NCBI GenBank assembly: GCA_965215275.1
Contig: OZ244044.1
Coordinates: forward strand, 1,797,561-1,861,560
Origin: Thermodesulfobacteriota bacterium
GTDB lineage: Bacteria; Desulfobacterota_D; UBA1144; Nemesobacterales; JAJCZQ01
Reading direction: 5' to 3'
Length of the DNA stretch: 64,000 nucleotides
The translations under genes and the position numbers were made by a program. The notes under the pieces were generated by a model. That model ran no database searches, was not told where the DNA came from, and worked only from the letters and a program-made list of their open reading frames with translations. Below are positions 1 to 46,927 of the stretch, piece by piece; position 1 is the stretch's first letter, and each line of letters starts with the position of its first letter.

Positions 1-408
1 AACCACGAATTTAGCCAGCTCGGCGGGCTGAAAGGTGAACGTTCCCAGTTCCAGCCATCTTTGAGCGCCGCCAACTTTCTTTCCCATGCCCGGTATTAAC
101 ACGGCTATGAGAAGGATCAGGCAGATCATGTAAGCAGGATAAACAAGATTTCTCAACAGCCTGTAATCCAGGTGCATGAAAACTATCATTGAAGACAGAC
201 CCAGCAGAAGATAGAGTGAATGCAGTTTGAGAAACCTTAAAGGGTCGTCGTAAACTTCAAGTGCGTAAACCGAACTTGTGCTGTAAACCATCAGTGCACC
301 AAAGCATGATATGAAGACCACTAATATGAACAGAGGAAAATCGTAGTTATTTTTTAAGGAGTTATATGCTTTTGACAATTTCTTTAAATATCCCTCCTCT
401 TTGTTCAT
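1..408 (-). CDS. ftsW: FtsW (SEDS-family peptidoglycan glycosyltransferase), N-terminal ~135 aa; 3' end runs off the window
   Basis: Minus-strand translation from ATG at 408 gives MNKEEGYLKK...DFPLFILVVFISCFGALMVYSTSSV (TM1) and later GAQRWLELGTFTFQPAELAKFVV. This matches the SEDS GxxRW..G..xQPSEfaK loop motif. The gene lies downstream of murD in the dcw cluster and overlaps the murD 3' end. Confidence 0.75.
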   Translation of the reverse strand, partial: MNKEEGYLKKLSKAYNSLKNNYDFPLFILVVFISCFGALMVYSTSSVYALEVYDDPLRFLKLHSLYLLLGLSSMIVFMHLDYRLLRNLVYPAYMICLILLIAVLIPGMGKKVGGAQRWLELGTFTFQPAELAKFVV

Positions 409-1690: not shown

Positions 1691-1691
1691 T

Positions 1692-2804
1692 TTACCTTAG
1701 TTTCAGGGTGGCCAGTGCCATAAGGGCAAACACTATTGATATTATCCAGAACCGTATTACGACTTTGGACTCTGACCATCCGCTTAGTTCAAAATGATGG
1801 TGCAGGGGGGCCATTTTCAAGATCCTTTTTCCCGTTAATTTAAATGACGTCATCTGCAGGATCACTGAAAGTGCCTCTATAACGAAAAGTCCACCTACGA
1901 TCACCAGAAGCAGTTCCTGCTTGATTACTATTGCTGAAAACCCTATGACTGCTCCCAGCGTCATAGAACCTACGTCTCCCATAAAGACCTGGGCCGGATG
2001 AGAGTTGTACCAGAGGAACCCTAGACACGCCCCGCCTATTGCAGATAGAAAAACTGCCAGTTCTCCGCCCACGGGTATATAGGGTATCTGCAGGTAGCTT
2101 GAAAATTCAGAGTTCCCGGCAATGTAGGCCAGGATAATGTAGGTCGATATCGCAACTGCGATTGAACCTATGGCCAGTCCATCGAGTCCGTCGGTGAAAT
2201 TGACGGCGTTCGATGTACCGATTATGACAAGGAGTGCAAATGGGATATAAAAGATCCCCAGTTTTATAACGGCTTTTTTAAAAAATGGAAAGACCACTGA
2301 CGTATGTTCATAGAAGGTATTCTCGTTAACTCCATAGGACATGGTGAACACCCCTTCCTGCACGGAAAGTAAAAGAACTATGAACATGGAACCGACTATC
2401 ATCTGGAGCAGGAGCTTGACCCTTGCTCTCATGCCGTTGTTACTGGTGAGCTTGAACCAGTCGTCCAGAAATCCGATAAGCGAGAAGCCGATCATGGAAA
2501 CAAGCATCACGATCATTATCATGTTGCTTATATTTACCCATAAGAGAGTTGAAATTATAATTGCAAGGACGATGAAGGTACCTCCCATCGTGGGGGTTCC
2601 TGATTTGGCTTTGTGGGAAGATGGTCCGTCTTCTCTGATACTTTCCCTGACCTGCCTTGCCTGCAGGAAATTTATGAACTTCTGTCCGAGGAATATGCAG
2701 ATAAGGAACGCGGTAACCCCTGCTCCGAACGAACGAAAAGTGATGTATTTGAACACGTTGAATAAAATAAAATGTTCTTTCAGATAAAATAAAAAATAGA
2801 GCAT
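1692..2804 (-). CDS. mraY: phospho-N-acetylmuramoyl-pentapeptide transferase
   Basis: 370-aa polytopic membrane protein with the dcw-cluster position between murF and murD. Confidence 0.9.
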   Translation of the reverse strand: MLYFLFYLKEHFILFNVFKYITFRSFGAGVTAFLICIFLGQKFINFLQARQVRESIREDGPSSHKAKSGTPTMGGTFIVLAIIISTLLWVNISNMIMIVMLVSMIGFSLIGFLDDWFKLTSNNGMRARVKLLLQMIVGSMFIVLLLSVQEGVFTMSYGVNENTFYEHTSVVFPFFKKAVIKLGIFYIPFALLVIIGTSNAVNFTDGLDGLAIGSIAVAISTYIILAYIAGNSEFSSYLQIPYIPVGGELAVFLSAIGGACLGFLWYNSHPAQVFMGDVGSMTLGAVIGFSAIVIKQELLLVIVGGLFVIEALSVILQMTSFKLTGKRILKMAPLHHHFELSGWSESKVVIRFWIISIVFALMALATLKLR

Positions 2805-2808
2805 TGTA

Positions 2809-4182
2809 TCAGTTCAGAAACTTTATCGTGTTTTCCATTTTCATACCGCGGGACCCCTTAAGCAGTATAAAATCATTATTTTCTGCGTTTGCAACAAGAA
2901 TTCTTGCAGCTTCCTCGTGCGTTTCAACGTGCAGGTTGTCCACTTCACCTTCAAGTTCTTCATTTATAAGCTTTGATAGTTCTCCATAGGTTATCACCAT
3001 ATCTATGTTCAGGTTTTTTATATGCCTGCCAATTTCCTTGTGCTCGCTGCCGCTGCCGGGTCCGAGTTCAAGCATATCTCCCAGTACGGCGATCACCTTG
3101 TTGTCGTTTTTTAACCTGGAAAGTTCAGTAAGGGCACTGGACATGGACGTGGGATTGGCATTATAGGAGTCGTTGATGATCCTGAATCCATGATCGGTCT
3201 GTATTATTTCAAGTCTCATGCTTACGGGTTCGTACGTTTTTATGCCTTCAACTATCTCCTCCAGCGAATACCCTAATGAGCATGCTATTGCTGACGCACA
3301 GAGAGCGTTCATAACGTTATGTGTACCAAAGCCCTTTATTCTCGCTTCCTCGGACCTGCCGTTTATGATCAGGTCGAAGGTTATGGCTTCAGTTCCCCTG
3401 CTCCTTATATTATCAGCACGTATATCAGCGCTCTTGCTGCTTAGACCGTAGGTGATCTTACGGCAGTTCAGTCCGGAGGCCATTATACTTATGTACGGGT
3501 CGTCCACGTTTACAATAAAGTCATTGTCCCTGCCGAACTTTTCGATCATCTCTCCCTTTGCTTTTGCCACGCCTTCAAGGGTTTTCATCTTTTTCAGGTG
3601 TCCTCTGCCGATGTTCGTTATAGCTCCTATGTCCGGTTGGGCCATACTGGTGAGCTGTCTGATCTCGCCAAAGTCGTTCATCCCGATCTCAGCCACGCAT
3701 ATATCGTGGCTGTCGTTCAGTTTAAGCAGCGTCAGCGGGAGTCCGAGATGGTTGTTTAGATTGCCCTGATTTTTCAATACCTTCTTTTTTACTGACAGGA
3801 TGCCGGCGGTTATTTCTTTTGTTGTTGTTTTACCGTTCGTGCCGGTGATACACGCGACTTTAAGCTTTTTATAACGATTTCTCCATGTGTTTGCCATCTG
3901 TCCGAGCGCTTCAGCAGTGGAACGCACTTTCATTATCGTTTTATTATCTTTCATTTTCAGATTTTCAGGTACACGTTCAAGTATCACGCCGGCTGCCCCT
4001 TTTTCAAATGCCTCGTTAATAAAGTCATGACCATCGAACCTGTCTCCCCTTATGGCGATGAAGAGATCTCCTGAAACTATCTTTCTGCTGTCAATTGATA
4101 TATCGCTGAAGTACCTTGCTGCGGACCTGTCCGACACTACTTCACAACCTGATGACCTTATTATGAATTCTCGTTCGAACAT
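2809..4182 (-). CDS. murF: UDP-N-acetylmuramoyl-tripeptide--D-alanyl-D-alanine ligase
   Basis: 457 aa with Mur-ligase P-loop ITGTNGKTTTKE; sits between murE and mraY. Confidence 0.9.
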   Translation of the reverse strand: MFEREFIIRSSGCEVVSDRSAARYFSDISIDSRKIVSGDLFIAIRGDRFDGHDFINEAFEKGAAGVILERVPENLKMKDNKTIMKVRSTAEALGQMANTWRNRYKKLKVACITGTNGKTTTKEITAGILSVKKKVLKNQGNLNNHLGLPLTLLKLNDSHDICVAEIGMNDFGEIRQLTSMAQPDIGAITNIGRGHLKKMKTLEGVAKAKGEMIEKFGRDNDFIVNVDDPYISIMASGLNCRKITYGLSSKSADIRADNIRSRGTEAITFDLIINGRSEEARIKGFGTHNVMNALCASAIACSLGYSLEEIVEGIKTYEPVSMRLEIIQTDHGFRIINDSYNANPTSMSSALTELSRLKNDNKVIAVLGDMLELGPGSGSEHKEIGRHIKNLNIDMVITYGELSKLINEELEGEVDNLHVETHEEAARILVANAENNDFILLKGSRGMKMENTIKFLN

Positions 4183-5700
4183 CTATCCTTCTGAACCGTC
4201 CAGAAATTTTTTTACGACCTCTCTGTCGTCAAAATCGATCTTCTTATCTCCGATGATCTGATAGTTCTCATGACCCTTACCCGCTATCAGGATAATGTCG
4301 TCTTTTCCGGCAAGTTCGATCGATCTTTTTATGGCCTTCTCTCTGCTGACGATCTTCGTATAGTTGTTACGAATTGAAGGTACGGACCTGATCCCTACCT
4401 CAATGTCGTTAATGATCTTTTCAGGGTCTTCCGATCTTGGATTATCTGAAGTTATTATCACGTGATCAGAGAACTGACCGGCGATTTTACCCATCATGGC
4501 CCTTTTGTCTTCATCCCTGTCTCCTCCGCATCCAAACACCGTGATAATACTGCTTTTTTTGAATGGTCGAAGGGCCTTTAAGATGTTCTGGAGTGCGTCG
4601 GGTGTATGTGCGTAGTCTATAAAAACTTCAAATCCCGCACGGCTTGTAATTTTTTCCAGCCTGCCGGGAACCGTTATATTTTCGGATATTGCGGACCCGA
4701 TACAGGATAAAGGAACTCCAAGTTCAGACGTGATCGTTACTGCCGCCAGGATATTATATAGATTATGTGCTCCTATGAAACTTGATCTTATCCTTAATTT
4801 TTCTCCTTTTACCATCAGTTCTGCCTCTATGCCTGAGCGGGACATCCTGTGACTTATGGAATGTACGTCCGCGTCGTCTGACAGCAGGGAGTAGGAGGCC
4901 GTTCTGTCGTCCGTTCCCGCGGCTATTTCCCTGCCGTAATGGTCATCGGCGTTAACCACTGCGACCTTGTTCTTTTTAGAACTGTTCTTTAAGACCCTGG
5001 TAAAGAGTTTTTTTTTAGAGTCGAAGTACGAATCCATTGAGCTGTGATAATCCAGATGGTCTCTGGAAAGGTTAGTAAACGCGGCACAGTCAAAATTACA
5101 GCCGTCAACCCTGTTCAGGTCCAGAGCGTGGGACGATACTTCCATGCACACGTTACTCACCTTGTTCTGCCTCATTTCGTACAGAAGTCTGGCAAGTTCT
5201 ATCGAATCGGGAGTTGTCATGGAGGAGGCTGATGCTTTTCCAGCGAACCTGTTCTCAATGGTCCCTATGGTCCCGGTTATCCTGTTCTCTTTTTTCCAGA
5301 TGGCATCAACTATGTTCGATACGGTGGTTTTACCGTTTGTTCCCGTGACCCCCACTAACGTCAGATCGTCTGACGGATCAAGGTAATAGCTTGAAGCGGT
5401 AAAGGGTGTGCATTCCCTTGTGTTGCTTACTCTTACGTACGTGATGTCCTCCCGCGTGTTTTCCGGCATGTCCTCCAGAAGTATAGAGGATGCTCCTTTT
5501 TCGGCCGCAGAACCAATGAAGTCGTGTCCATCAAAGTTGCTGCCCCTTATCGCACAGAACATGTATCCCTTTTTTACTTCTTTCGAGTTTGAAGTTATGC
5601 CCGTCACTTTACTTTGAAGACTGCCGGTCACGTTTAAGTAGCTAACATTTTTAAGAACGTCGATTACCTTCATATATCCTGACTCAAAGTGAATGAGCAT
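4183..5700 (-). CDS. murE: UDP-N-acetylmuramoyl-L-alanyl-D-glutamate--2,6-diaminopimelate ligase (start possibly at 5673, MKVIDVL...)
   Basis: 505 aa with Mur-ligase P-loop VTGTNGKTT; the stop abuts the murF start. Confidence 0.88.
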   Translation of the reverse strand: MLIHFESGYMKVIDVLKNVSYLNVTGSLQSKVTGITSNSKEVKKGYMFCAIRGSNFDGHDFIGSAAEKGASSILLEDMPENTREDITYVRVSNTRECTPFTASSYYLDPSDDLTLVGVTGTNGKTTVSNIVDAIWKKENRITGTIGTIENRFAGKASASSMTTPDSIELARLLYEMRQNKVSNVCMEVSSHALDLNRVDGCNFDCAAFTNLSRDHLDYHSSMDSYFDSKKKLFTRVLKNSSKKNKVAVVNADDHYGREIAAGTDDRTASYSLLSDDADVHSISHRMSRSGIEAELMVKGEKLRIRSSFIGAHNLYNILAAVTITSELGVPLSCIGSAISENITVPGRLEKITSRAGFEVFIDYAHTPDALQNILKALRPFKKSSIITVFGCGGDRDEDKRAMMGKIAGQFSDHVIITSDNPRSEDPEKIINDIEVGIRSVPSIRNNYTKIVSREKAIKRSIELAGKDDIILIAGKGHENYQIIGDKKIDFDDREVVKKFLDGSEG

Positions 5701-7592
5701 ATGGTATCACTTTTTATTTTTTGTCCCGTTTCCGGAGACTGGGAAACTGCAAAACCGGCTCCGTCGAACTTTACCTCCACCCCCGTCTGACTTGCCCACT
5801 TTAATATGTCTCTTTTGCTTTTTCCGGCCAGATCGGGCATCAGCTTTTCTCCCGAGAAGTCACTATCCGCCGGTACCCCTAAATGGAACAGGGTCTTTTC
5901 CGTAATGGACCTGAAAATAGGAGCTGCCACGGACCCTCCATATATGGATTTTTTCGGATTGTGCACAACGACCGCAAGGGTGATCTCAGGTTCATATGCG
6001 GGAGCAAATCCTACAAAGGACGCTATGTACCTGTCTTTGTGGTAACCTCCCGTTTCCAGGTCCGGTATCTGGGCCGTTCCGGTTTTTCCGGCAACCTTAT
6101 ATCCGTTGATCTTCGCATTTTTTCCAGACCCGTTCTCCACGACGCCCTGTAAGATGGAGGTGGCCTGCATAGCCGTTTCGTAGGAGATCACTTTTTTCAG
6201 TGCCTCCGGACTTTTTTGTTTAACCGTTATACCGTCCGGTGAGTTTATCTGCTTAACGATGTGAGGTTTCATAAGGTATCCACCGTTGGCAATGGCCGAC
6301 ATGGCAGTTGCCAGTTGAAGGGACGTAATGGAGACCCCTTGTCCGAATGAAATGGTCGCCAGTTCCAGCGGTCCCCATTTTCTGCTGTTCGAAAGCATCC
6401 CAGGGGATTCTCCCGGCAGATCAACTCCCAGGACCTTGCCAAATCCAAAGTCTCTCAGATAACTGTAGAGGTTTGCTTTTCCCACGTTCTCTCCGATCTT
6501 GGACGCACATATGTTACTTGATACCTGTATGGTTTCAGAAACCGTTAAGATCTCGTGAGGGTAGGCGTCTTTTATAACCTTTGAACCGATCTTCCTTTTT
6601 CCGTTTTCACAATCGTAAGTTGAACTGGATTCCACCACTCCTTCTTCCAGAGCGGCTGCCACAAGGAACACTTTCAACGTTGAACCTGGTTCGAACATCT
6701 GCCATATAGAGAAATTCCTTCTGTATTGCTCGGGGAATTCTGCAAATCTGTTAGGGTTAAAGAACGGATAGGAGGCCATGGCAAGTATCTCTCCCGTGTT
6801 CGGGTTCATTGCGACCGCCATTCCACTTTCCGCCTCGGTTTTTATAATGCCGGTTTTGAGTTCCTTTTCCACTATATGCTGTATAGTGGAATCGATCGTC
6901 AGTTGTACTTCATGTCCTCTGGCGGGACTTTCAAGATCAGCCGGGGTCCTGAGTATCTGTCTTCCCTTGGCGTCTTTTCTGAATCTGATCTTTTGAGGGG
7001 TTCCCGACAGTACTTTGTCCATGCCGTACTCTATTCCCTCGATACCCTTTGAGTCTATATCGGTAAAACCAAGTACCTGTCCGAGCAGATATTCGTTAGG
7101 GTAGACCCTCTTGGGTTCCTTTAAAAAACCGATGCCCTCGATGTTCAGACCCTTTAATTTTTTTACCAGCTTCTCGTCAGCTAACCTTTTTAACCATACG
7201 AATGATTTATTTGACGAGACAAGGGCAAGGACCTTCCTGTATTCAAAGTGGGTGTTCGCGGATATTTCCTTAGCGAATTTTTTAGGGTCCCTGATCTGTT
7301 TTGGATTTATATAAATGGAGTCGGTATCAACGTTCGTGGCAAGATACCTGTTGTTCCTGTCAAGGATGTTGCCCCTTCTGGGCAGGAGACCGAACGAACC
7401 GAAATGCTGTTTTTCTGCTATCTTGAGTGATTTGTTACGGTCTGCTACCTGTAACGTGAATGCCTTATAGGCTATGGTCGTAAACGATAGAAAAACGATA
7501 AAAGCCGAAATGTAAATTTTCCATTTACCTGTTCTGGAACCGTCTTTATAATGGTAAGACCGGTTCCTGTTCCGCTTTTTTATAGTTTTCAT
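5670..7592 (-). CDS. ftsI: penicillin-binding protein 3 / FtsI transpeptidase
   Basis: 640 aa with an N-terminal TM segment and an STxK/SxN/KTG transpeptidase fold (GSTLK, KTGTA); sits between ftsL and murE. Confidence 0.88.
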   Translation of the reverse strand: MKTIKKRNRNRSYHYKDGSRTGKWKIYISAFIVFLSFTTIAYKAFTLQVADRNKSLKIAEKQHFGSFGLLPRRGNILDRNNRYLATNVDTDSIYINPKQIRDPKKFAKEISANTHFEYRKVLALVSSNKSFVWLKRLADEKLVKKLKGLNIEGIGFLKEPKRVYPNEYLLGQVLGFTDIDSKGIEGIEYGMDKVLSGTPQKIRFRKDAKGRQILRTPADLESPARGHEVQLTIDSTIQHIVEKELKTGIIKTEAESGMAVAMNPNTGEILAMASYPFFNPNRFAEFPEQYRRNFSIWQMFEPGSTLKVFLVAAALEEGVVESSSTYDCENGKRKIGSKVIKDAYPHEILTVSETIQVSSNICASKIGENVGKANLYSYLRDFGFGKVLGVDLPGESPGMLSNSRKWGPLELATISFGQGVSITSLQLATAMSAIANGGYLMKPHIVKQINSPDGITVKQKSPEALKKVISYETAMQATSILQGVVENGSGKNAKINGYKVAGKTGTAQIPDLETGGYHKDRYIASFVGFAPAYEPEITLAVVVHNPKKSIYGGSVAAPIFRSITEKTLFHLGVPADSDFSGEKLMPDLAGKSKRDILKWASQTGVEVKFDGAGFAVSQSPETGQKIKSDTICSFTLSQDI

Positions 7593-7897
7593 TTTCTATT
7601 ACTGATAATAGTCGCTCTTTCCATGTAAAAGATATCGTTCTGGGTCGGAAATCTGAACCCCAGATTACTGGCTATGATCTCCAGTTTGTACGGTGACTGA
7701 AGATTTGACAGCCTGGCCCTTAATTTCTGCCTTTCCTGTACCAGTGATTTTTCTCTTTCAGTGTTTTCTGATATTGCGTATCCCGTGTCTATCTGATCCA
7801 CCTTTATCTTCACAAAGGCCATTGAGAACCCCAGGGTTAAAACTATTGTCAACAGTGCTATAGATCTTTTGTTCATTGTTTTATATCCTCTCTCCAA
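7589..7897 (-). CDS. ftsL: cell division protein FtsL (small bitopic membrane protein)
   Basis: 102 aa with a single TM segment followed by a coiled-coil-like region; overlaps rsmH and ftsI as is typical for dcw clusters. Confidence 0.7.
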   Translation of the reverse strand: MERGYKTMNKRSIALLTIVLTLGFSMAFVKIKVDQIDTGYAISENTEREKSLVQERQKLRARLSNLQSPYKLEIIASNLGFRFPTQNDIFYMERATIISNRK

Positions 7898-8846
7898 TTC
7901 TCATTTTGGCACTTCTGCATCTTGGATTTTCCATACGCTCCTCTTCGCTGGGTCTTATGGGGGACTTGGTCAGTATTTTCAAGGTGCTTTTTTTCTGGCA
8001 ACCGCACACGGGCAGGTCTGGTGGACAGATACAGTTTGAACTGAATTCCTTGAAGTAGTTCTTAACGACCCGGTCCTCAAGGGAATGAAAGGATATTATT
8101 ATCAGCCGCCCTCCGGACTTTAACAGATCGACCGCTTTTTTTATAAATACCCTTAGATTATCTATTTCGTTGTTCACTGCTATTCGGAGAGCCTGGAACG
8201 TCTTTGTTGCAGGGTGTCTGCTTTTTGAATGAAATCTTTTCGGGATCGAACTGGAAACTATCTCTGCCAGTTCTGCAGCGGTCTTCAGCGGGCCGGATTT
8301 TCGTGCCTTGACGATAGACTCGGAGATCCTTTTTGAAAAATTTTCCTCTCCGTAATTTTTTATCAGACCTTCGATCTCTTCCGCGGTCATCTCGTTCAGC
8401 AGATCGAACGCGGTAAACTGAAGTTTTATGTCCATTCTCATGTCGAGGGGGCCGTTACCTGAGAAGCTGAATCCCCTGTTGTCGTTTTCAAGCTGAAAGG
8501 ATGACATGCCGAGGTCTGCGATTATCCCGTCTACTTTTTCCACGCCGAGGTCCCTGACCACGCTGTCAATGTCGACAAAATTCTTATTTACGAGGGTCAC
8601 CTGACTTTTAAACGGTTTCAGGTACTGCTCGGAATACATCAGAGCTCCCTCGTCTACGTCCAGACCGATTATCTTTGACCTGCAACCCGACATTTCAAGA
8701 AGCTGCATGGAGTGTCCTCCTAATCCCACCGTTGCATCTACGTATACGCCATCTTCCACCGGGTTAAGATAGTCAACGGCTTCTCTCAACAGGACCGTTT
8801 TATGTACAGGCTGATTAACTTTTGTAGCGACTTTATTCATTTTCAT
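7881..8846 (-). CDS. rsmH: 16S rRNA (cytosine1402-N4)-methyltransferase RsmH (MraW)
   Basis: 321-aa SAM-methyltransferase fold lying immediately downstream of mraZ. Confidence 0.88.
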   Translation of the reverse strand: MKMNKVATKVNQPVHKTVLLREAVDYLNPVEDGVYVDATVGLGGHSMQLLEMSGCRSKIIGLDVDEGALMYSEQYLKPFKSQVTLVNKNFVDIDSVVRDLGVEKVDGIIADLGMSSFQLENDNRGFSFSGNGPLDMRMDIKLQFTAFDLLNEMTAEEIEGLIKNYGEENFSKRISESIVKARKSGPLKTAAELAEIVSSSIPKRFHSKSRHPATKTFQALRIAVNNEIDNLRVFIKKAVDLLKSGGRLIIISFHSLEDRVVKNYFKEFSSNCICPPDLPVCGCQKKSTLKILTKSPIRPSEEERMENPRCRSAKMRIGERI

Positions 8847-9289
8847 AGTCCGTATTCTGCAAGGATCTCCCTGTTTTTGTTGAACTGCAGATGAGAGCCC
8901 TTAAACACCTCCTCATACCAGATATTTTTATCCCATATCTCGATTTTCTTCAGCATACCCACCATCACTACCTCTTGTGTGATGTTTGCGTGCTTTCTCA
9001 GCAGCTGGGGTATTAAGACCCTGCCCTGTCCGTCAACGGGGCAGTCTGAAGCCCCTCCCATTAAATATCTAATAGAAGCCAGCAGGTTCTCGTTAAACTG
9101 GGGCAGGGCGGACATACTGTTCTCGATCTTGCTCCATTCCTGTAGAGGATAAGCCACCAGACACCTGTCAAAGTTAGTTATGATGAAGAACTCCTCGTCG
9201 TATTTTTCACGACAGATCTCCCTGAACTTGGAAGGAATACTGACCCTTCCGGTGCTTGTTACCTTGTGTTCATATTGTCCGCGGAACAT
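8843..9289 (-). CDS. mraZ: transcriptional regulator MraZ
   Basis: 148 aa; first gene of the dcw cluster with a 4-bp overlap with rsmH. Confidence 0.85.
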   Translation of the reverse strand: MFRGQYEHKVTSTGRVSIPSKFREICREKYDEEFFIITNFDRCLVAYPLQEWSKIENSMSALPQFNENLLASIRYLMGGASDCPVDGQGRVLIPQLLRKHANITQEVVMVGMLKKIEIWDKNIWYEEVFKGSHLQFNKNREILAEYGL

Positions 9290-9434
9290 GATTAACCAAA
9301 CTGTACCATTTTATGCCATAATATATACTTTATATGCCATTTGATTACGATATAAGAAATAAGTTAAAATGTCAAGCGTTATGAGGATAAGTAAAAAAAT
9401 TATATGTTTTAAGCGGTTTTGAACTGGATGATCA
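9290..9434. promoter_or_regulatory. divergent promoter region of the dcw cluster (mraZ) and the 9435/murJ unit; contains a direct repeat TATGCCAT x2 spaced 21 bp apart
   Basis: AT-rich intergenic region upstream of mraZ. Repeats lie at 9312-9319 and 9333-9340. Confidence 0.3.
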
Positions 9435-9653
9435 ATGCCGGATATTTTCATAAGACTTCATAAGAAAAGTCAGAATGTATTGCTGCAGTCCGTTCTGGGC
9501 AGCTATTCACATTTGATGTGGGTGAGAACCGAGGACCGGAAAAGTGCACTTGTCAGGGTTGCCACGACCGATGACCTCTATCAGGAAACTGTCGGTGTAC
9601 TCAAAAGTATAAGGTCATACATTGGCTATGATATTGTAAAAGCTGATAAATGA
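9435..9653 (+). CDS. hypothetical small protein (72 aa), translationally coupled to murJ
   Basis: ORF ends in ATGA, overlapping the murJ start codon. No recognisable motif. Confidence 0.4.
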   Translation: MPDIFIRLHKKSQNVLLQSVLGSYSHLMWVRTEDRKSALVRVATTDDLYQETVGVLKSIRSYIGYDIVKADK

Positions 9654-14304: not shown

Positions 14305-15057
14305 TTGTATCCTAATCTCATTGAATTCAGTTCCTTTCATATCTCATCCTTTTACGTAATGGTGCTGGCAGCCTCTCTTGTTGCTTACTACGTATGTGAG
14401 AAAGACCTGGTCAGAAGAGGGAAAGATAAAAGTACTGCTGATATAGTGCTGATCGCCAGCTTTATAGGCGGGATGGTGGGTGCAAAGCTGCTTTTTTTGT
14501 ATCAGAATGTGGCGTTTTCAGAGGTGGTCCAGGACCCGCTCCGCTATTTTTCGTCGGGCTATACGTTCTTTGGCGGGTTTATCGGGGCTTTACTTATGCT
14601 CTATCTGGTGTCTGTATATAAAAAGGTGAGTTTCTGGTACCTGACCGATATTTCTTCAGCTCCGGTCATTATTGCTTATGGAGTAGGCAGGATCGGGTGC
14701 TTACTCGCTGGAGATGATTACGGGGTACCAACGGATGTGCCTTGGGCAATGTCGTTCCCGAACGGTTCTCCTCCTACTCTGGAAAATGTCCATCCAACCC
14801 AGATCTATGATTCGATCAGTATGCTTATCGTGTTTTACTTCCTGTGGAACCTGAAGAGCAGAGGTCGTGCGACCGGTTTCCTTACTTCACTGACCTTTAT
14901 TGTACTTGGTACACAGAGGTTCTTGATGGAGTTTATAAGGAACACCACACCGAGTTCCGTTTATGGATTATCCCAGGCGCAGCTGATAGCCCTGTCTTTG
15001 GTATGTGCAGGTATAATAAAAATGGGAATTATATACTTAACTATGCAAGATAAATGA
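14305..15057 (+). CDS. lgt: prolipoprotein diacylglyceryl transferase
   Basis: 250 aa membrane protein; the Lgt signature G..GRIGCLLAGDDYG is present. Confidence 0.85.
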   Translation: MYPNLIEFSSFHISSFYVMVLAASLVAYYVCEKDLVRRGKDKSTADIVLIASFIGGMVGAKLLFLYQNVAFSEVVQDPLRYFSSGYTFFGGFIGALLMLYLVSVYKKVSFWYLTDISSAPVIIAYGVGRIGCLLAGDDYGVPTDVPWAMSFPNGSPPTLENVHPTQIYDSISMLIVFYFLWNLKSRGRATGFLTSLTFIVLGTQRFLMEFIRNTTPSSVYGLSQAQLIALSLVCAGIIKMGIIYLTMQDK

Positions 15058-15072
15058 CATTAGCATTGTAAA

Positions 15073-15735
15073 TTATACACGAATGGTTTTTTTCAATTCT
15101 CCGTTATACCACTCCCCGCCCATTTCCTTTTTGATATAATTTATTTTAAAATCAATATTATCTTTTAAATCATCTATCATAAGATCTTTATTATTTTTAT
15201 ATACATCTATATCGTTTTGTCCTACGATCTCACCCATGTCTGGACACAACACGCAAAATTCACCATTTCTATTAGAATCAGAAAAAGAATATATTCTGTA
15301 TTTACCTTTATATGTTTCAATCTGTTTTAAATCCTTCATATAATAATCTGGATTATATTTTTCATTTATCATGTAATCACTCCTCCTTTTACTTTCATAT
15401 TTACGGGTAACTCCTTCTTTTTTATCAAGTTCTTTTATTCTATCTAATTGTAATTCAAATTGATTTATCTGATAATCCTTCGCATCGTCCCTTTCTCTGC
15501 CAGACACAGTAAGTACTCCAACCTTTTTACCATATTCTGCATGCTTAAATTTCCTATGACCTCCAGTTCCTTTTATCTTCACATAACCAGCTTTTTTTAT
15601 TCGCTTAATTAACTCCCGAACAGATATAACTGTTTTTCCTTCATAAATATGCTCAACCAATGTTGGTTTACGCTCATAAATCTGTTGAATTCTTGTTAGT
15701 TTATTATCTTCTTCCATATTTTTTCCTTTTATCAA
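15073..15735 (-). CDS. HicA/YcfA-like domain protein with a ~140-aa C-terminal extension of unknown function
   Basis: Residues ~40-100 (VRELIKRIKKAGYVKIKGTGGHRKFKHAEYGKKVGVLTVSGRE) resemble the HicA toxin fold (G-S/G-H-x-x-f-x-H). The remainder has no recognised domain. Confidence 0.45.
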   Translation of the reverse strand: MIKGKNMEEDNKLTRIQQIYERKPTLVEHIYEGKTVISVRELIKRIKKAGYVKIKGTGGHRKFKHAEYGKKVGVLTVSGRERDDAKDYQINQFELQLDRIKELDKKEGVTRKYESKRRSDYMINEKYNPDYYMKDLKQIETYKGKYRIYSFSDSNRNGEFCVLCPDMGEIVGQNDIDVYKNNKDLMIDDLKDNIDFKINYIKKEMGGEWYNGELKKTIRV

Positions 15736-15800
15736 TTTTCTATATTATTCAATAACCTTTATCCTTATATGTAATAGAACAAATTAAAATCAATTATATT

Positions 15801-17075
15801 TTATTTACAATAACCAAGTCTTTTGTTTTCTTTTATAAGTCCTGATAATGTGAATTTGTTGCTCTTCAATTTATTACAGGGTCCACAAAGTAAAATTCTG
15901 TTCGATATATGGTTTAGTCCACCATCAGAACGTGGAGTGTTATGATCTAATTCAAGATATCTCGGGTCATCAAATTGACGGTTGCAACCCTGACATTTGC
16001 TCTCCTCTTGATCTAACAGATATTTAAGCATTTCTGCTCGAGTCATTTTATGACCTTTAGGTTCATCTATCTTTAATTTGGTTTTGAGAAAAGGAACTGC
16101 CTCTTCACCTTTATCTGTTCTAACTGGTAAATCTGAAGTCCAAGTTATATTTTTTCTAAAAAGCTGATGCTGTGTTCCAGAGTATCCTTTTTTCCTACCT
16201 TTTACTATTAAGCCTTGCTTTTCAAACAAACCAAGAATTACATCCTTAGCCTTATCCCATATATCAATTCCTACCCACTGCCTGTTTAGTTTTTCAGAAG
16301 CTACTAATGTAGTTCCACATCCACAAAAAGGGTCTAATACTATATCTCCTTCATTAGAAGATGCTTTTATTATACGTTCATATAATGCTGGAGGTTTTTG
16401 TGTAGGATAACCTATTCGTTCTTTTGCTACAGCATTTAAACTATCAATTATCCAAGTGTCATGACATATTCTTCCTCTATCTAAATAATACTTATACTCT
16501 TTGCTGTCTATTTTTCTTATACGATATGCTCTACCATCTTTATCTACTTTATCAAAATGGTTGGATTTTTCCTCTCGGTATGGTTCATATTGTGGATTAA
16601 ATATCTTATTTTTGGTTTTACTATAAAACAGTATTATATCATGTTTTTTACTGAACGACTTCTTACTTGCCCCGCCAGTATTGTATTTCCACACTATTTC
16701 ATTAACAAAGTTTTTATATCCAAAAATAGCGTCCATAATGGCTTTTATATAATGACTTGCTGTTGGATCACAGTGCAGATAAATACTTCCATCTTTTCGT
16801 AGTATCCTTTTCATCTCTAATAAACGAACAGCCATGAAACAGACAAACGCACCCATTCCGTCCGAATGAGCATTTCTTGCACTTTCTATAGCTTCCATGA
16901 GTTCTGGAAAATCATCAGTTATTTTATCAACCCACTCTTGATGAACATCCCTGTCCCAAGACCATCTGTCCTGAAAAGAAGCACCAGAAGATAAACTATC
17001 AGGTGTAGCATGAAAATCTCTATTTTTGTTAAAAGGAGGGTCAGTTGCAATTAAATGAACAGATTCGCTGTTCAT
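15801..17075 (-). CDS. beta-class DNA N6-adenine/N4-cytosine methyltransferase fused to a C-terminal HNH zinc-finger nuclease. As annotated this is an N-truncated form; the full-length ORF would start at 17155 if the G9 tract were G10
   Basis: Motif IV DPPF sits at residues 12-15 and motif I LDPFCGCGTT follows it. C-terminus CQGCN...DHN...H...N...CGPCN is an HNH motif. The in-frame upstream sequence encodes the conserved LFHGDNLDFLRA segment but has no start codon in this frame. Confidence 0.8.
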   Translation of the reverse strand: MNSESVHLIATDPPFNKNRDFHATPDSLSSGASFQDRWSWDRDVHQEWVDKITDDFPELMEAIESARNAHSDGMGAFVCFMAVRLLEMKRILRKDGSIYLHCDPTASHYIKAIMDAIFGYKNFVNEIVWKYNTGGASKKSFSKKHDIILFYSKTKNKIFNPQYEPYREEKSNHFDKVDKDGRAYRIRKIDSKEYKYYLDRGRICHDTWIIDSLNAVAKERIGYPTQKPPALYERIIKASSNEGDIVLDPFCGCGTTLVASEKLNRQWVGIDIWDKAKDVILGLFEKQGLIVKGRKKGYSGTQHQLFRKNITWTSDLPVRTDKGEEAVPFLKTKLKIDEPKGHKMTRAEMLKYLLDQEESKCQGCNRQFDDPRYLELDHNTPRSDGGLNHISNRILLCGPCNKLKSNKFTLSGLIKENKRLGYCK

Positions 17076-17133
17076 TGCTCGGAGAAAATCTAAATTGTCT
17101 CCGTGAAATAAAGTGCGATTCTGCCAATTTGAT

Positions 17134-17142
17134 GGGGGGGGG
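17134..17142. repeat. G9 homopolymer (C9 on the coding strand) in the 5' region of the methyltransferase-HNH gene; candidate phase-variation tract
   Basis: With G10 the ATG at 17155 reads MKASTPPPSNWQNRTLFHGDNLDFLRAMNSESVHLIATDPPF in one frame. With G9 that frame stops after ~20 codons. Confidence 0.7.
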
Positions 17143-17167
17143 TGGAGGCTTTCATAGTCGTTTGTTC

Positions 17168-17380
17168 TTAGCGTTTACGCTTTTTGTCTGATCTATTTTT
17201 ATTCAATAACCGAACTTTATCGTTTTCTTTCTTTACTTGATCAGATTGCTTTCTTGGAGTAAATAAAGCACGAGCTATTTGCTCTGGTGAAACATCAACA
17301 GGCGGTAGTAGATAAGCATGCCTCTTGGTCATTGCATCCTCCTTAACAACATTATTACATACTAAATAACCATTAAGCAA
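17168..17380 (-). CDS. small basic protein (70 aa), translationally coupled to the transposase
   Basis: 8-bp overlap with the upstream transposase ORF; Lys/Arg-rich C-terminus. Confidence 0.4.
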   Translation of the reverse strand: MLNGYLVCNNVVKEDAMTKRHAYLLPPVDVSPEQIARALFTPRKQSDQVKKENDKVRLLNKNRSDKKRKR

Positions 17381-18317
17381 TTAAATCTTCATACTTCAAA
17401 CGTTTTCCGATCATTGAAGCGTATATCTCTTGCATCATTTTTTCAGTATCGTATTTCCGCAAGTTGTGCCGATTGGCAAATTCATTAACGTATCTATGTA
17501 GATGTTTAGGACTAATATGGTGAAAGGTCCCGTAATACCCTCTTTTTAGTAAAGCCCAGAAAGATTCTACACCGTTAATATGAGCTTGTTTGTTTACAAA
17601 TTCTCCAACGCTGTGTTTTACCGTCTTATGATTAAAACTCATACCTTCATAGCTCTTATAATCGTCTGTATAAACCGTTGAATTACCATCTACATGTTTA
17701 CCGATAAATTCTTGCAAACTTGATTTGTCGGTATTATTAACAACAGATGCACTTATATTGTTTGTGTTTCTATCTTTTACACCAACTACAGCCGTCTTGC
17801 CAACGACCCCACGACCTGCTTTTAGCTTTTTGCTTGAATGTTTATTTTGTTCAAGACCACCAAAATATGCTTCATCCACTTCTACGGGACCTGACATCTT
17901 ACCACCCATATTCATCCAAGCCTCACGTAACCTTTGAGCCATGAAATAAGCAGATTTCTGTGTTATTTTTAAATCTCTGTAAAGTTTCATGCTGGATACA
18001 CCTTTTAATGAAGTGGACCATAAGAAAATAGCAATAACCCACTTTTGATAACTGATCTTCGATCTTTCCATTAAACTACCAATACGAACACTGAAATTGC
18101 GTCTGCAATCACCACACCAATATGGCATAGGTTTTCCAGAAGGAACTTTACTCACTTTTACACTACCGCATCTAGGACAATGTAAATGCTTGTTATCTTT
18201 TCCCCAACGTTGCTCTTCAAACCACTGTTCTGCAACTTCATTATTAGGGAATTTCTTAAATAACTCTATAAGTGATATTCCTTTACGATAATGTTTTCCA
18301 GGTGCTTTATATGACAT
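17373..18317 (-). CDS. IS1595-family (ISXO2-like) DDE transposase
   Basis: N-terminal zinc ribbon HCPRCGS...CGDCRR, then an ISXO2-like DDE domain (VYTDDYKSYEG..., FHHISPKHLHRYVNEFA). Confidence 0.8.
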   Translation of the reverse strand: MSYKAPGKHYRKGISLIELFKKFPNNEVAEQWFEEQRWGKDNKHLHCPRCGSVKVSKVPSGKPMPYWCGDCRRNFSVRIGSLMERSKISYQKWVIAIFLWSTSLKGVSSMKLYRDLKITQKSAYFMAQRLREAWMNMGGKMSGPVEVDEAYFGGLEQNKHSSKKLKAGRGVVGKTAVVGVKDRNTNNISASVVNNTDKSSLQEFIGKHVDGNSTVYTDDYKSYEGMSFNHKTVKHSVGEFVNKQAHINGVESFWALLKRGYYGTFHHISPKHLHRYVNEFANRHNLRKYDTEKMMQEIYASMIGKRLKYEDLIA

Positions 18318-18450
18318 ACTATTTATCCTCTTGATTATTGATTTTATAGTATTATACTATCATACAAACCTTGCATAGTCAAGTATATAATTCCCATAAA
18401 AATAGTACTGATATCATCAGGAAAGAAAGAGGAAAGGGCAGGTTGATCAT

Positions 18451-19776
18451 TTGAGAATAATAATAGTAGGTGCCGGACAGGTGGGGCTTTTTTTAGCAGG
18501 TGAGCTGTGTAACGATCATGACGTGGTGGTTATCGAGAACGACAAGGAAAGGTCACTGCATATAAAAGACAGCCTTGACGTGCTGTCCATTCACGGCGAG
18601 GGGGACGACCCAAAGGTCCTGGCAGAGGCCGGACTGGAAGAAGCTGACGTATTTCTTGCCGTAAGTGGTGACGACAGGGCCAATATACTGTCTTCACTGC
18701 TTGCTGACTTGATGAATTTAAAAAGCGTGGTTTGCAGAATAAGGAACAAGGACTATGTGGAACATACCAGCCTTCTGAAAAGTAACAGGATACACGTTGT
18801 TAACCCCAGCGAGATAATCTCGTCCAAGTTCGCTGACCTTGTAAGTCATCCTTTTGCATTGAGGACCGAACTGTTTGGAGAGAACAACGAAGTTGAACTG
18901 TTCAAACTCAGGGTGGAAGAAGGTGCGGAAGTTGCAAATAAAATGCTCAGAGACCTTGAACCTGCCAGTTCCTGGATATTTGTGGGCGTGTCACAGAATG
19001 GGAAAATGAAAGTCCCTAAGGGCGACACGGTACTGTATTCTGGAGATTATGTCTTTGCACTTGGCGATCCCGGCGTCATACAAAGATTAAAAAAGCTCTT
19101 TGATCTGGGGGAGGACAGTATAGGTTCTGCAATAATAGTCGGGGGAGGAAGACTTGGAAGAACGGTTGCGGCCACCTTGTTAAAAAATAAAATAAAGGTC
19201 AAGATAATAGAGAGTGATCCCACCAGGGCGGACCTGGTCGCGGAGGACCTCCTTGGAGCTGCGGTGTTCAAAGGCGATGCAACGAACGCTGAGTGCTTAA
19301 AGGAAGCCGGCGTTGAATCAACTGATTATCTGGCCGCTCTGACCGGAGATGACGAAAAGAACGTTTTAAGCGCCCTTCTTGCAAAAAACCTTGGTGTAAA
19401 GCAAACGACCGTGCTCTATACGAAGCCGGATTACATAGGCGTGCTTGAGGCAATTGGCGTTAACAGGGCGGTAAGTGTAAGACATGCGATCGCGAACGAG
19501 GTCCTGAGCCTGCTGCATATCAGAGGAGTGGAACATATTACGCTTCTGGAAGAGGGAAAAGGCGAGGTGCTGGAATTTAAAATCCATGAAGGGTCAGAAG
19601 TTATAGGGAAAAAGTTAAAAAATATTGATCTTCCAGAAGATGCCATAGTAGGTATCTGTATCAGAGAGGGTAAGATACAGATACCCAGAGGAGAGTTCTT
19701 CCTGCGACGCGACGATCGTTTAATTGTCTTCACGCTTCCCAATGCTGTAAAAAAGGTGGAACAGATACTTGGATAG
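18451..19776 (+). CDS. trkA: Trk potassium uptake system NAD-binding protein TrkA
   Basis: 441 aa; two tandem TrkA-N (Rossmann, IIVGAGQVG / IVGGGRLG) plus TrkA-C domains. Confidence 0.85.
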   Translation: MRIIIVGAGQVGLFLAGELCNDHDVVVIENDKERSLHIKDSLDVLSIHGEGDDPKVLAEAGLEEADVFLAVSGDDRANILSSLLADLMNLKSVVCRIRNKDYVEHTSLLKSNRIHVVNPSEIISSKFADLVSHPFALRTELFGENNEVELFKLRVEEGAEVANKMLRDLEPASSWIFVGVSQNGKMKVPKGDTVLYSGDYVFALGDPGVIQRLKKLFDLGEDSIGSAIIVGGGRLGRTVAATLLKNKIKVKIIESDPTRADLVAEDLLGAAVFKGDATNAECLKEAGVESTDYLAALTGDDEKNVLSALLAKNLGVKQTTVLYTKPDYIGVLEAIGVNRAVSVRHAIANEVLSLLHIRGVEHITLLEEGKGEVLEFKIHEGSEVIGKKLKNIDLPEDAIVGICIREGKIQIPRGEFFLRRDDRLIVFTLPNAVKKVEQILG

Positions 19777-36682: not shown

Positions 36683-38013
36683 GGGAATTATAAAGGAAAG
36701 TTGACAAGTTTACCTTAACTGTTCCGAGTGCAGAGTTCCTCTATCCCCGATCTCTTTTGATCTGATACTCTTAGCACTCATCGGGAGTATTTCTACCTTA
36801 TTCCCACCCGATATGAAGTCTCCTTCATCAAGAGTATTGATATTTTTACCTGCATTTATGTCCCTGTCTTCTGAATAACCGCAATACATACAGTTAAAAG
36901 TCCTGACTGACAGAGGCTGTTTGGGATTTACCTTTCCGCATTCAGAACAGGTCCTTGTTGTATAATGAGCTTTAACCAAAACCAGCTTGCCTCCAGCTAT
37001 CCCGGCTTTGTAAGCAAACTGACGTTTGATCTTGCCCCATTGCTGTTCCGTTATGGATTTAGCAAGATGATGGTTCTTTACCATTCCTTGTATATTCAAA
37101 TCCTCTAATTTTATATGATTACTCTTCTTTACGGTCTCTGTTGTTAATCTGTGTATAGCATTATTTTCACGATCGGTAGTTCGTTCCCATTCCTTCGCTA
37201 ACGATAAAACTTTCTTCTTTCTGCTGTCAGAACCTTTTACCGCTCTTGAAACAATTCTTTGCTTTCTTTTCAGTTCCTTCCTGTCTATCCTGATACCGGG
37301 AATTTTAGTTCCATCTGAAAAAGCTAATCTGTTTGTTATTCCAAGATCTATTCCTATGGATTTATCCAAAGGTCTCTTCTTCTCATTTGTAAACTCACAC
37401 AGAAACTGTATCTTTATTCTTAACGAACTCCTGATTATTCTTATTACAGTTTTAGGTTGCTTTAAAACAACTCCGTCAGGCATACTACCTTTGAAAGATA
37501 ACCTCCCAGTCCCTTTATCGTTAAATAAGTCCTTCTGCCGATCTTTTCAATGTTTTTATAATTGTTTGTTTCAAAACTTCTGACGGGTCTGTTCGGACCT
37601 TTATATTTTGGTCTGCCTACCTTTTTTGCTTTCCTGCCAGCTTTTTTATTCCTTAAATAATTCAGATAGGGACCGTAAGCATTATCCAGCCTTTCCAGAA
37701 CGCTTCTTTGAGCTACCACGTTAAACTTTTCAAATTCCCTGTCCTGCTCCCGGACCTCGGTCAGTTCGTTAAACTGCTCGTATTTGGATACGGTTTTTTC
37801 ATACCAGTCATAAGACCTTAATCTGTGATACAGGGCACCGTTGTAAAGATCGGTAAGCTGTTGCAGAAATTCATCCAGCCTTTTATGAAATCCACTATCT
37901 GCCTTTACAGTTCTTGTAATCGTTCTAACCATATAATAACATTACCTTTTTCTATTCTGTTTGTCAATTTTTTCTTGTTAACTTATTTTTGTCAACTTTT
38001 CTTTATAATTCCC
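36683..38013 (-). mobile_element. TnpB-only (IS200/IS605-family, IS1341-like) element bounded by 25-bp near-perfect inverted repeats
   Basis: GGGAATTATAAAGGAAAGTTGACAA at 36683-36707; its reverse complement with one mismatch at 37989-38013; tnpB lies between them. Confidence 0.6.
36710..37932 (-). pseudogene. tnpB: tnpB (RNA-guided RuvC-like nuclease / IS605 OrfB), split by a frameshift near 37462-37483
   Basis: The 156-aa N-terminal ORF and the 257-aa C-terminal ORF overlap in different frames. RuvC-I IGIDLGI, RuvC-II IKLEDLNIQG, zinc finger CSECG...CMYCG and RuvC-III DRDINAGKNI are all present. Confidence 0.8.
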
Positions 38014-46082: not shown

Positions 46083-46345
46083 GAAAAACAGTGTAAATAC
46101 AAGGGGCGTAGTCCCAATGTCGTTGTTGTATTTTGGATTTAATTCAAGGAAAGTCTGGAAAAGGGACTGCCAGATCTTGTGATAGAAAGTCTTACTTGAT
46201 ATGTTACTTTCGTGCTAAAAAGATCCGTTCTCCCATCATTGCTCCAAATTTTATGATCTCTTTATCCGAAAGGAATGTCTCTGGTGTAACAGTTTCCACG
46301 TGAAATCCAGCATCGCGTATTCTGTCTATGTAATCTTTTCCGCAT
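46083..46345. repeat. direct repeat copy 1 (3' end of the methyltransferase gene plus its downstream region)
   Basis: ~85% identical to 47213-47476 by eye, sharing AATGTCGTTGTTGTATTTTGGATTTAATTCAAGGAAA...TTACTTTCGTGCTAAAAAGATCCG. Confidence 0.7.
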
Positions 46346-46927
46346 AATCGGACATGAAGACATTCACCAAAGGTTTTGAGGCGTTCTTCAGGGTCAGTTA
46401 TTGATGGGTCCTCAAATGTTTTTTGAGTTAAGATCGGGACTAGTATTACAGCCATGCCGTCATCCTTTAATACTCTGTACAGTTCACTTATAGCTTTTTT
46501 ATCATCCTGAATATGTTCCAGTACATGACTGCAGATGATCAGATCGAAAGACCGGTCTGGATATCTGATGTTCGTTATATCCATTTCTACCATCACGTCC
46601 CGGTCACTTAGACCAGCGGATAAGTATCCTTTACCAAAATATTCCTTTAACTTTTGTGCAAGGCACACGGCTGGTGCGATATCAAGCACTTTGATAGATG
46701 GAATGGGGGGGGGGATATGTCTTTAAAAGGAAAAGGTATATCAAGCGATGTCTTTCATAGGAACCGCATGTCGGGCATTTAGCATTTTTACGACTGTTAA
46801 TGCGATTATTAATGGGAAGAAACTCTCTGGACGATCTTTTGCATACTGGGCAATACATTTCTTTTCCACAATGATAATATATTGCTTTTAGAACACTAAT
46901 GAAATATGTACGAATAAGGTGAAGCAT
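46204..46927 (-). CDS. zinc-ribbon + class I SAM-dependent methyltransferase (Methyltransf_11-like), interrupted by a G10 tract; current state frameshifted (OFF)
   Basis: N-terminal ORF (CPVC...CPTC) ends in ...LKTYPPPHSIYQSA* just after the tract. The C-terminal ORF carries the methyltransferase core (DLIICSHVLEHIQD). One fewer C would join the two frames. Confidence 0.7.
46705..46714. repeat. G10 homopolymer inside the methyltransferase coding region; candidate slipped-strand phase-variation tract
   Basis: GGAATGGGGGGGGGGATATG: the tract encodes PPP and shifts frame directly. Confidence 0.75.

Follow-up and report, generated by a model that had tools for sequence, protein, structure and literature searches.

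This study was concerned with an AT-rich segment at the 3' end of lgt in a 64,000-nucleotide stretch of the Thermodesulfobacteriota contig OZ244044.1, which is referred to as the window. Positions 15024-18395 of the window are a cargo-carrying insertion sequence (IS) of the IS1595 family, i.e. a transporter IS, and this identification is close to certain. The element carries an IS1595 transposase gene, a small basic open reading frame (ORF), a gene encoding an amino-methyltransferase fused to an HNH nuclease (methylase-HNH) and a gene encoding a HicA-like protein. The best explanation of the locus as a whole is very probably an IS1595 transporter IS with independent passengers; the vehicle is of a known kind and the cargo is the new part. 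The methylase-HNH gene contains a run of nine cytosines (C9) shortly after its start codon, and switching of this gene by a simple-sequence repeat (SSR) is an interpretation that the comparison with related genes somewhat favors.

Element boundaries and the insertion into lgt

The GC profile confirmed the island of shifted base composition that had been reported from the sequence. GC content is 0.27-0.40 over 15000-18400 and about 0.45-0.50 in the flanks, and the exact element has a GC content of 0.335, compared with 0.436 in the remaining window. A 28-nt inverted repeat, 96% complementary, pairs 15022-15049 with 18370-18397, and the octamer ATAAAAAT occurs as a direct repeat at 15016-15023 and 18396-18403. 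With the octamer taken as the target duplication, the element spans 15024-18395, or 3,372 bp, and its termini are 26-nt inverted repeats that match at 25 of 26 positions, GGGAATTATATACTT(A/G)ACTATGCAAG. A pattern search of the window with the end sequence returned 2 matches, the two termini only, where 0.00 were expected. The inverted repeats and the 8-bp duplication enclose all four genes, and these exact ends replace the limits of about 15060 and 18420 given in the original prediction. The boundary features are listed below; L038 and L039 are contigs of relatives with an uninterrupted lgt-trkA junction.

14305-15057, plus strand: lgt, with its final 16 codons swapped for 12 from the inverted repeat (reconstructed Lgt against homologues)
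15016-15023, no strand: target-site duplication, left copy (ATAAAAAT), a direct repeat present as a single copy at the L038 empty site
15024-15049, plus strand: terminal inverted repeat, cargo end (GGGAATTATATACTTAACTATGCAAG), an inverted repeat whose end recurs in 9 related elements
18370-18395, minus strand: terminal inverted repeat, transposase end (GGGAATTATATACTTGACTATGCAAG), from the inverted repeat and the pattern search
18396-18403, no strand: target-site duplication, right copy (ATAAAAAT), a direct repeat present as a single copy at the L038 empty site
18451-19776, plus strand: trkA, once 4 nt 3' of lgt and now separated by the element (gene order in L038 and L039)

The island had been placed between lgt and trkA, but it actually lies within the 3' end of lgt, in the last 16 codons. 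The closing 12 codons and the stop of the current lgt ORF come from the left inverted repeat, and deletion of the element together with one octamer yields a 253-aa Lgt ending ...GIIKIVLISSGKKEERAG, whose stop codon is followed by trkA after 4 nt. A search with this reconstructed Lgt identified P0146, which is 97% identical and has exactly the predicted C-terminus, as well as P0147 (81% identical) and P0148 (74%), both of 253 aa. The Lgt homologues carry names from Candidatus Dadabacteria and Thermodesulfobacteriota. The contig of P0146, L038, has the order recJ-lgt-trkA-purD-rpsL with 4 nt between lgt and trkA; in L039 the order is recJ-lgt-trkA with trkA likewise 4 nt after lgt, and the contig stops beyond. 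The L038 DNA is identical to both window flanks and contains a single ATAAAAAT, reading ...GGTATAATAAAAATAGTACTGATATC.... The empty site suggested as a check on the original prediction therefore exists in nature, with one octamer, and the converse case, in which the same four genes would occur with host-like composition throughout the lineage, was not what was found. Since the empty site occurs in a relative with a 97% identical Lgt, the insertion into the 3' end of lgt is recent and polymorphic, and a near-identical strain is without the element. The locus thus presents a bounded, probably active element with a natural before/after pair, and a clean case of the invasion of a housekeeping operon in small-genome uncultured bacteria.

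Two outward promoter-like sites, both consensus matches only, are located on the plus strand at 18311-18358 near the transposase end. They face trkA and might now drive it.

The transposase and its related elements

The transposase gene and its putative promoter are as follows.

17373-18317, minus strand: seemingly intact 314-aa DDE transposase of the IS1595 family, zinc ribbon at the N-terminus (profile matches)
18354-18382, minus strand: promoter-like sequence ahead of the transposase gene, TTGACT-17-TAGTAT with TG upstream and the -35 hexamer inside the inverted repeat (consensus match only)

The transposase matches PF12762 over profile positions 2-153 of 153 (E=2.8e-40) and NF033547 with 183 bits (E=6.9e-54; cut-off 75), while the zinc ribbon match to PF12760 is weak at 21.7 bits, under the 25.4 cut-off. 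This enzyme would bind both ends and move the whole unit. A scan of species-representative genomes identified 27 transposase loci of equal length and 37-65% identity, in metagenome-assembled genomes (MAGs) labelled Alphaproteobacteria, Chloroflexota, Latescibacterota, Dehalococcoidia, Bryobacterales and Arenicellales; the nearest transposase in cultured plasmids is 45% identical. The end-sequence search of these loci detected inverted pairs of GGGAATTATAtACTTgACTATGCA. In nine related elements from other phyla, these ends, shared with the window element, are bordered by perfect 8-bp duplications; the nine measure 2,729 to 5,094 bp, which indicates that all of them bear cargo. In the ISNwi1 subgroup of ISfinder the ends are ggnnatTAT, the duplication is 8 bp and derivatives with passenger genes occur. 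The GGGAATTAT end fits this consensus, and assignment of the element to the ISNwi1 subgroup is presumptive.

The clade with the end GGGAATTATAtACTTgACTATGCA always carries passengers of 1.5-4 kb, often DNA methyltransferases, methyltransferase-nuclease fusions and toxin-like genes. For example, the cargo is a Dam-like D12 methyltransferase and an unknown 244-aa protein in L011, a DUF7946/DUF7947 protein in L006, a second transposase in L004, and the methylase-HNH in L036, L037 and L042. Among the cargo of the L012 element (5872-9455) are a protein of 136 aa that weakly matches the YafQ toxin (E=5e-5, under the curated cut-off) and a protein of 490 aa that joins an N6_N4 methyltransferase to an Mrr_cat (PD-(D/E)XK) nuclease; this is a parallel cargo of a toxin-like gene and a methylase-nuclease fusion, with a different nuclease. 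The proposal that the cargo was mobilized by the IS is thus strongly supported by the ends, the 8-bp duplication, the natural empty site and the nine relatives with assorted cargo. The four co-directional minus-strand ORFs and their domain assignments also hold.

Two copies of a related element, L004 and L005 (OZ253557.1), are identical at 3450/3450 positions in two loci of one genome, which indicates recent activity of that element. L005 is not bracketed by a perfect duplication, and on the right side its flank resembles that of L004.

Two further loci place a TnpB gene between IS1595-like ends. At 36683-38013 of the window there is a second element of 1,331 bp with similar inverted ends (GGGAATTATAAAGGAAAGTTGACAA), a perfect 8-bp duplication (GTAAATTA) and no IS1595 transposase; its TnpB-like gene (OrfB_IS605 E=1.5e-14; Cas12f1-like TNB E=8.5e-20) is split into 37932..37462 and 37483..36710. 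It is unusual for a non-autonomous element of the IS1595 type to carry TnpB. In L042 (302-1429) a TnpB (OrfB_IS605) gene between IS1595-like ends adjoins the transposase and methylase-HNH element, and the octamer AAATGAAT flanks the outermost ends (302-5543), which suggests a 5.2-kb composite that moved as one unit.

The methylase-HNH gene and its repeat tract

The methylase-HNH gene and the C9 tract are as follows.

15801-17155, minus strand: methyltransferase-HNH fusion gene (PF01555 and PF01844), from ATG 17155, with the body in another frame past the C9 run
17134-17142, minus strand: homopolymer C9 (G9 on the plus strand) in the 5' coding part of methylase-HNH (frame analysis)

The 424-aa mechanical ORF, which begins at ATG 17075, matches N6_N4_Mtase (E=2.3e-48) and then HNH (E=2.4e-9). 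A database search with the protein gave at least 8000 matches, of which the best 120 are 51-75% identical. The few named relatives are from Nitrospira, Chloroflexi and Cyanobacteria MAGs, and the bin labels SB and CAR among the relatives look like sponge-metagenome bins, by our own reading. No full-length copies were found in plasmid or phage collections. A scan of IMG/VR with the family alignment returned only one relative, 38% identical, and a metagenome scan with methylase-HNH returned only 3 distant fragments; neither added cases to the comparison of repeats. In PADLOC only the MTase_II, MTase_III and oMTase models match the fusion, and the other three proteins of the element have no match. 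Literature searches on the fusion family, on repeat-controlled HNH-methylases and on IS1595 passengers returned general reviews only, and no description of the methylase-HNH family was found in the literature searched.

In a 38-member alignment, DPPF, DPFxGCxTT, the D-H-N...N...N residues and 3-4 zinc cysteines are invariant, and all are present in the window copy. The homologues share with the window protein a median identity of 81% (N-part), 42% (residues 123-222, the target-recognition segment), 69% (the next part), 45% (linker) and 75% (HNH domain). P0003, the nearest protein overall, has 94/42/84/75/84% identity in the same order. P0007, which is more distant overall, shares the middle segment, with 70/70/71% for the N-part, target-recognition segment and HNH domain. 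The recognition segment thus appears to be shuffled between conserved catalytic parts, a pattern typical of selection for new specificities. The enzyme may be a single-chain restriction-modification-like enzyme in which the central target-recognition segment has been swapped among relatives; whether it acts as a restriction-modification-like module is judged an even call. With its shuffled recognition segments and invariant catalytic sites, the family displays traits characteristic of restriction-modification evolution.

The gene is solitary between housekeeping genes in L002, L003 and L035, and an IS1595 transposase or remnant adjoins it in five of the eight informative loci (the window, L036, L037, L042 and L040/41). 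This adjacency to one transposase clade is the point in favor of a different function, in which methylase-HNH would be an accessory transposition factor, either cutting the second strand at the ends through HNH or marking the ends by methylation. Such a role is very improbable: most related elements transpose without methylase-HNH and leave perfect duplications, the gene is widespread without a nearby transposase, and the variation in its recognition segment has no counterpart in the IS ends, which are conserved. In L040 (3714-3951) and L041 (747-984) the adjoining sequence is a remnant of an IS1595 transposase, about 80 C-terminal residues, directly upstream of methylase-HNH, as if an element had decayed and its cargo had remained in place. 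In L003 (2852-4357) a 501-aa reverse-transcriptase and RNase H protein is encoded about 3.6 kb upstream of the solitary methylase-HNH.

The conserved family N-terminus reads M..PNWxNRTLFHGDNLxFLRAMNSES. In the window its counterpart, SNWQNRTLFHGDNLDFLRA, lies in frame upstream of ATG 17075 in a frame without a start codon, and the mechanical ORF from ATG 17075 misses it. The only start is ATG 17155, 12 nt past the stop of the small ORF, and it is out of frame with the methylase body because the C9 run, located 12 nt after this ATG, lies between. The 12-bp junction of the original prediction is correct as the distance to ATG 17155, but that ATG does not read into the methylase body. A tract of C10 or C7 would give a 451-aa protein starting MKASTPPPSNWQNRTLF..., and past the tract the frame is open for 457 codons with all catalytic residues intact. 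We propose that expression of methylase-HNH would be switched by slippage of a simple-sequence tract just past the start codon, and that the C9 copy would read OFF.

Relatives have other repeats at the position of C9, namely C8, (AAGCA)n, (GCAAGCGA)n or (GAAGAGCA)n, with units of 1, 5 and 8 nt. The nearest relative with DNA, the independent JGI contig L001, has C8 at the same spot and is also out of frame. L035 has a perfect AGCAAGCG repeat of 7.2 copies between the Shine-Dalgarno sequence plus ATG and the conserved N-terminus, and L040/41, a different locus, has 3.5 perfect copies of the same unit at the same position. L036 has at least 14 copies of GAAGAGCA around an assembly gap, and L042 has at least 12 copies of AAGCA before an assembly gap; these two repeats are also perfect and occupy the same interval, after the Shine-Dalgarno sequence plus ATG and ahead of the conserved N-terminus. 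In addition, the leader KQASKQASKQ of P0009 is what an in-frame (AAGC)n would encode. Differing repeat units at one position in diverged alleles constitute a simple-sequence contingency signature, as in phase-variable mod genes, and SSR-driven switching is considered somewhat better than an even prospect. A 13-nt direct duplication (TAAATGTCGAAAT x1.9) also lies across the methylase-HNH start in L003 (8050-8080).

The rule that a protein called from MNSES would indicate an upstream repeat was rejected as unsafe. L037 has a plain in-frame ATG, and P0102/P0104 and P0115/P0119 differ solely in the called start.

Two other explanations of the broken frame were considered. In the first, the cargo is decaying, methylase-HNH is a frameshifted pseudogene and the repeat tracts are incidental. 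This would account for a start codon out of frame with the body in the window, L001, L035 and L040/41, and for the second window gene that is also broken at a G/C run. It is unlikely in view of the long open frame and intact catalytic residues past the tract, of the five different repeat units at the same position in diverged homologues, all 100% perfect and unexpected from random decay, and of the young appearance of the element, with ends matching at 25/26, an intact duplication and an empty site in a 97% relative. In the second, C9 is a homopolymer error of the assembly and the gene is truly in frame (C10) and simply expressed. The window comes from a single 1.99-Mb contig, plausibly assembled from long reads, where homopolymer length is the main error type. 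There are only two G/C runs of at least 7 nt in the window, both of them at least 9 nt long, and both fall at frame breaks in methyltransferase genes. However, T9 and A8 runs within five other window ORFs leave their frames intact, and the independent metagenome contig L001, with C8, is out of frame as well. This explanation is rather unlikely, and it touches the present state only; a homopolymer of 9-10 nt in the 5' coding region would still be hypermutable.

The other G/C run, a G10 at 46705-46714 (C10 on the coding strand), splits an S-adenosylmethionine (SAM)-dependent methyltransferase-like gene. An 81-aa zinc-ribbon portion (46927..46682) lies on one side of the break and a 161-aa Methyltransf_11 portion (46689..46204) on the other. 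The run represents another contingency tract or else another homopolymer error.

Several points weigh against the switching of methylase-HNH by its tract and against the functions proposed for the passengers. First, no length variation was observed at any single locus, and L040 and L041, from two samples, are identical. Secondly, all countable tracts (window, L001, L035 and L040/41) are OFF relative to the ATG, and a frameshift from the upstream start in each of these makes an OFF state, a pseudogene and the use of another start inseparable; in L040/41 an in-frame TTG is called as the start. Third, the loci inspected for repeats were chosen in part for proteins called from an internal Met, so that the repeat frequency of 6/9 is biased by the selection of truncated gene calls, and in most of the family the N-terminus is short and lacks a repeat. 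In addition, C9 was read from a 2-Mb single-contig assembly and may be a miscounted homopolymer. Lastly, the functions of the passengers are predictions.

The HicA-like protein, the small ORF and comparison with known systems

The remaining features of the element are as follows.

15073-15717, minus strand: protein of 214 aa from ATG 15717, a HicA fold plus an orphan C-terminal domain (mechanical ORF of 220 aa from TTG 15735)
15718-15800, minus strand: conserved non-coding 5' region of the HicA-like gene, a candidate promoter/operator and ribosome-binding site, which aligns with L031
17168-17332, minus strand: small basic ORF, 54 aa, with ATG 17332 preceded by AAGGAGG (mechanical 70-aa ORF from TTG 17380)

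The deposited HicA-like product (P0001) starts at ATG 15717, the likely start, and has 214 aa; the 65-bp junction reported earlier is correct for the TTG start and does not apply to the deposited one. Residues 40-93 of the 220-aa ORF match PF07927 HicA_toxin with 31 bits (cut-off 27, E=2.8e-7). In a HMMER search of 1.8 billion representatives, residues from about 38 to 101 match classical HicA proteins of 60-100 aa with E around 1e-5, and beyond the HicA domain there are only two relatives. P0122 (258 aa, L031) has the same architecture at 34% identity (E=1e-7) and is the only full-length homologue, and P0129 (90 aa) consists of the C-domain only. The predicted local distance difference test score (pLDDT) of the HicA domain in the AlphaFold model is about 95, and Foldseek matched this domain to 1whz, 6g26_E/F and 4c26 with a probability of 0.98-1.00 and a target-normalised TM-score of 0.60-0.75. 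The conserved GxH histidine of HicA is present (GTGGHRKF). The possibility raised earlier that this is an ordinary HicA toxin with a disordered tail did not stand, as strands and a helix are predicted for its C-terminal part, which recurs in conserved form in two other proteins.

No hicB gene or HicB-like domain was found in the element. The HicA-like protein would be an RNA-targeting toxin-like domain, and control is presumably exerted in cis by the C-terminal domain of the same chain. A cis-controlled HicA toxin is a tentative reading of the domain content, and one point tells against it: the C-domain was also compared as a HicB-like domain, and the comparisons gave no support.

The HicA-like stop codon is 23 nt from the inverted repeat. 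In L031 the P0122 gene is directly before an end resembling the inverted repeat (...AAGTATATCATTC at the contig end), there is no open frame in the 148 nt upstream, and its non-coding 5' region aligns with 15718-15790 although the proteins are only 34% identical. With its own 5' region and a position at the end in both the window and L031, the HicA-like gene looks like a self-contained cassette at element ends.

The 54-aa product of the small ORF is very basic in its C-terminal half, and profile searches detected no family matches for it. ATG 17332 is a likelier start than TTG 17380. The 8-bp junction between this ORF and the transposase gene in the original prediction is really an overlap, and it exists only with the TTG start. 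The motif LPPxxx(S/T)PEQIxxxLF of the small ORF recurs in L004 and L011 (tblastn E=4e-5 and 7e-4, in a small database), in the leader of the Dam-like methylase ORF in L011 and near the element end in L004. The small ORF could encode a small regulator, which is a guess.

A defense or addiction role had been suggested for the four genes, and the domain content of the passengers is what such a role would be derived from. In one form of this suggestion the four genes are one defense or addiction system, with the HicA-like protein as the obligate partner of methylase-HNH, as its effector or its regulator, and the transposase only leading the operon. In its favor, the genes all run in one direction with little space between them and with no intervening terminator-like site, and L012 likewise pairs a toxin-like gene (weak YafQ) with a methylase-nuclease fusion. 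A promoter and terminator scan found promoter-like sites no more frequently than in shuffled sequence, so that operon structure is not decided by the scan; co-transcription from the transposase promoter is possible. A search of Rfam at E<=1 over 14500-19000 returned nothing. On the other side, methylase-HNH occurs alone or with other small genes in eight other loci and never with the HicA-like protein (0/8), which itself has a single full-length relative among the 1.8 billion representatives. In addition, methylase-HNH is solitary in three loci, and the HicA-like gene keeps its own 5' region in L031. One joint system is therefore quite unlikely and the pairing in the original prediction is unsupported; the link is limited to one element, and the two genes were treated as separate passengers. 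These passengers would be independent selfish or defensive modules.

More broadly, the IS1595 transporter-IS clade may serve as a cross-phylum vehicle among uncultured bacteria that spreads SSR-switched methyltransferase-HNH restriction-modification enzymes together with other selfish cargo (the single-chain HicA toxin and TnpB). This combined proposal is doubtful as it stands. Many clade matches presumably come from sponge-associated metagenome bins, by our own reading of the bin names. If the proposal is true, mobile phase-variable epigenetic or defense switches would exist beyond pathogens.

The element was compared with several known systems. The transporter IS, or passenger-gene IS, was defined on the IS1595 family, according to the passages of PMC3129680 and PMC7986276 that cite Siguier, Gagnevin and Chandler (2009). 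The present element resembles the IS1595 transporter ISs in its DDE transposase with a zinc ribbon, its inverted repeats starting GGGAATTAT, its 8-bp duplication and its internal passengers, and differs in its cargo set, for which no description was found.

Methylase-HNH resembles the Type IIC/IIG/IIL enzymes (MmeI, BpuSI) in having a nuclease and a methyltransferase in one chain, a variable recognition segment and no partner gene. However, the nuclease here is an HNH domain at the C-terminus and not a PD-(D/E)XK domain at the N-terminus, and the methyltransferase is of the beta-class N6_N4 type, with DPPF before the SAM motif, unlike that of MmeI and BpuSI; cleavage and its dependence on methylation are predicted only.

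The HicA-like protein shares the HicA fold and the conserved GxH histidine with the HicAB toxin-antitoxin systems (6g26, 4c26 and E. coli hicAB). It differs from them in that there is no hicB, the HicA domain is embedded in a 214-aa protein, and a conserved N-terminal peptide (MEExxKxTRIQQIY) and an orphan C-terminal domain of about 90 aa are present. To the fused single-chain toxin-antitoxins EzeT and CapRel-SJ46 there is no homology, and autoinhibition is proposed by analogy only, but a toxin domain without a separate antitoxin and with a potentially restraining second domain is common to all. With a HicA fold and no HicB, the HicA-like protein may represent a new single-chain toxin arrangement.

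Lastly, phase-variable methyltransferases (phasevarions), including the Type III mod genes of Haemophilus, Neisseria, Helicobacter and Mycoplasma, are reviewed in PMC13076061. Methylase-HNH differs from these mod genes in its architecture, in the lack of a res partner and in riding an IS; the hosts here are uncultured environmental or symbiotic bacteria, not pathogens, and the repeats are known solely as sequence. In our own comparison the likeness lies in a non-triplet repeat just past the start, a unit that varies by allele, and shuffled recognition domains. One methylase-HNH subclade has its repeats exactly where the phase-variable methyltransferases of pathogens have them, and if the switching is true, phase-variable methylation reaches environmental and symbiotic bacteria and is tied to transposition.

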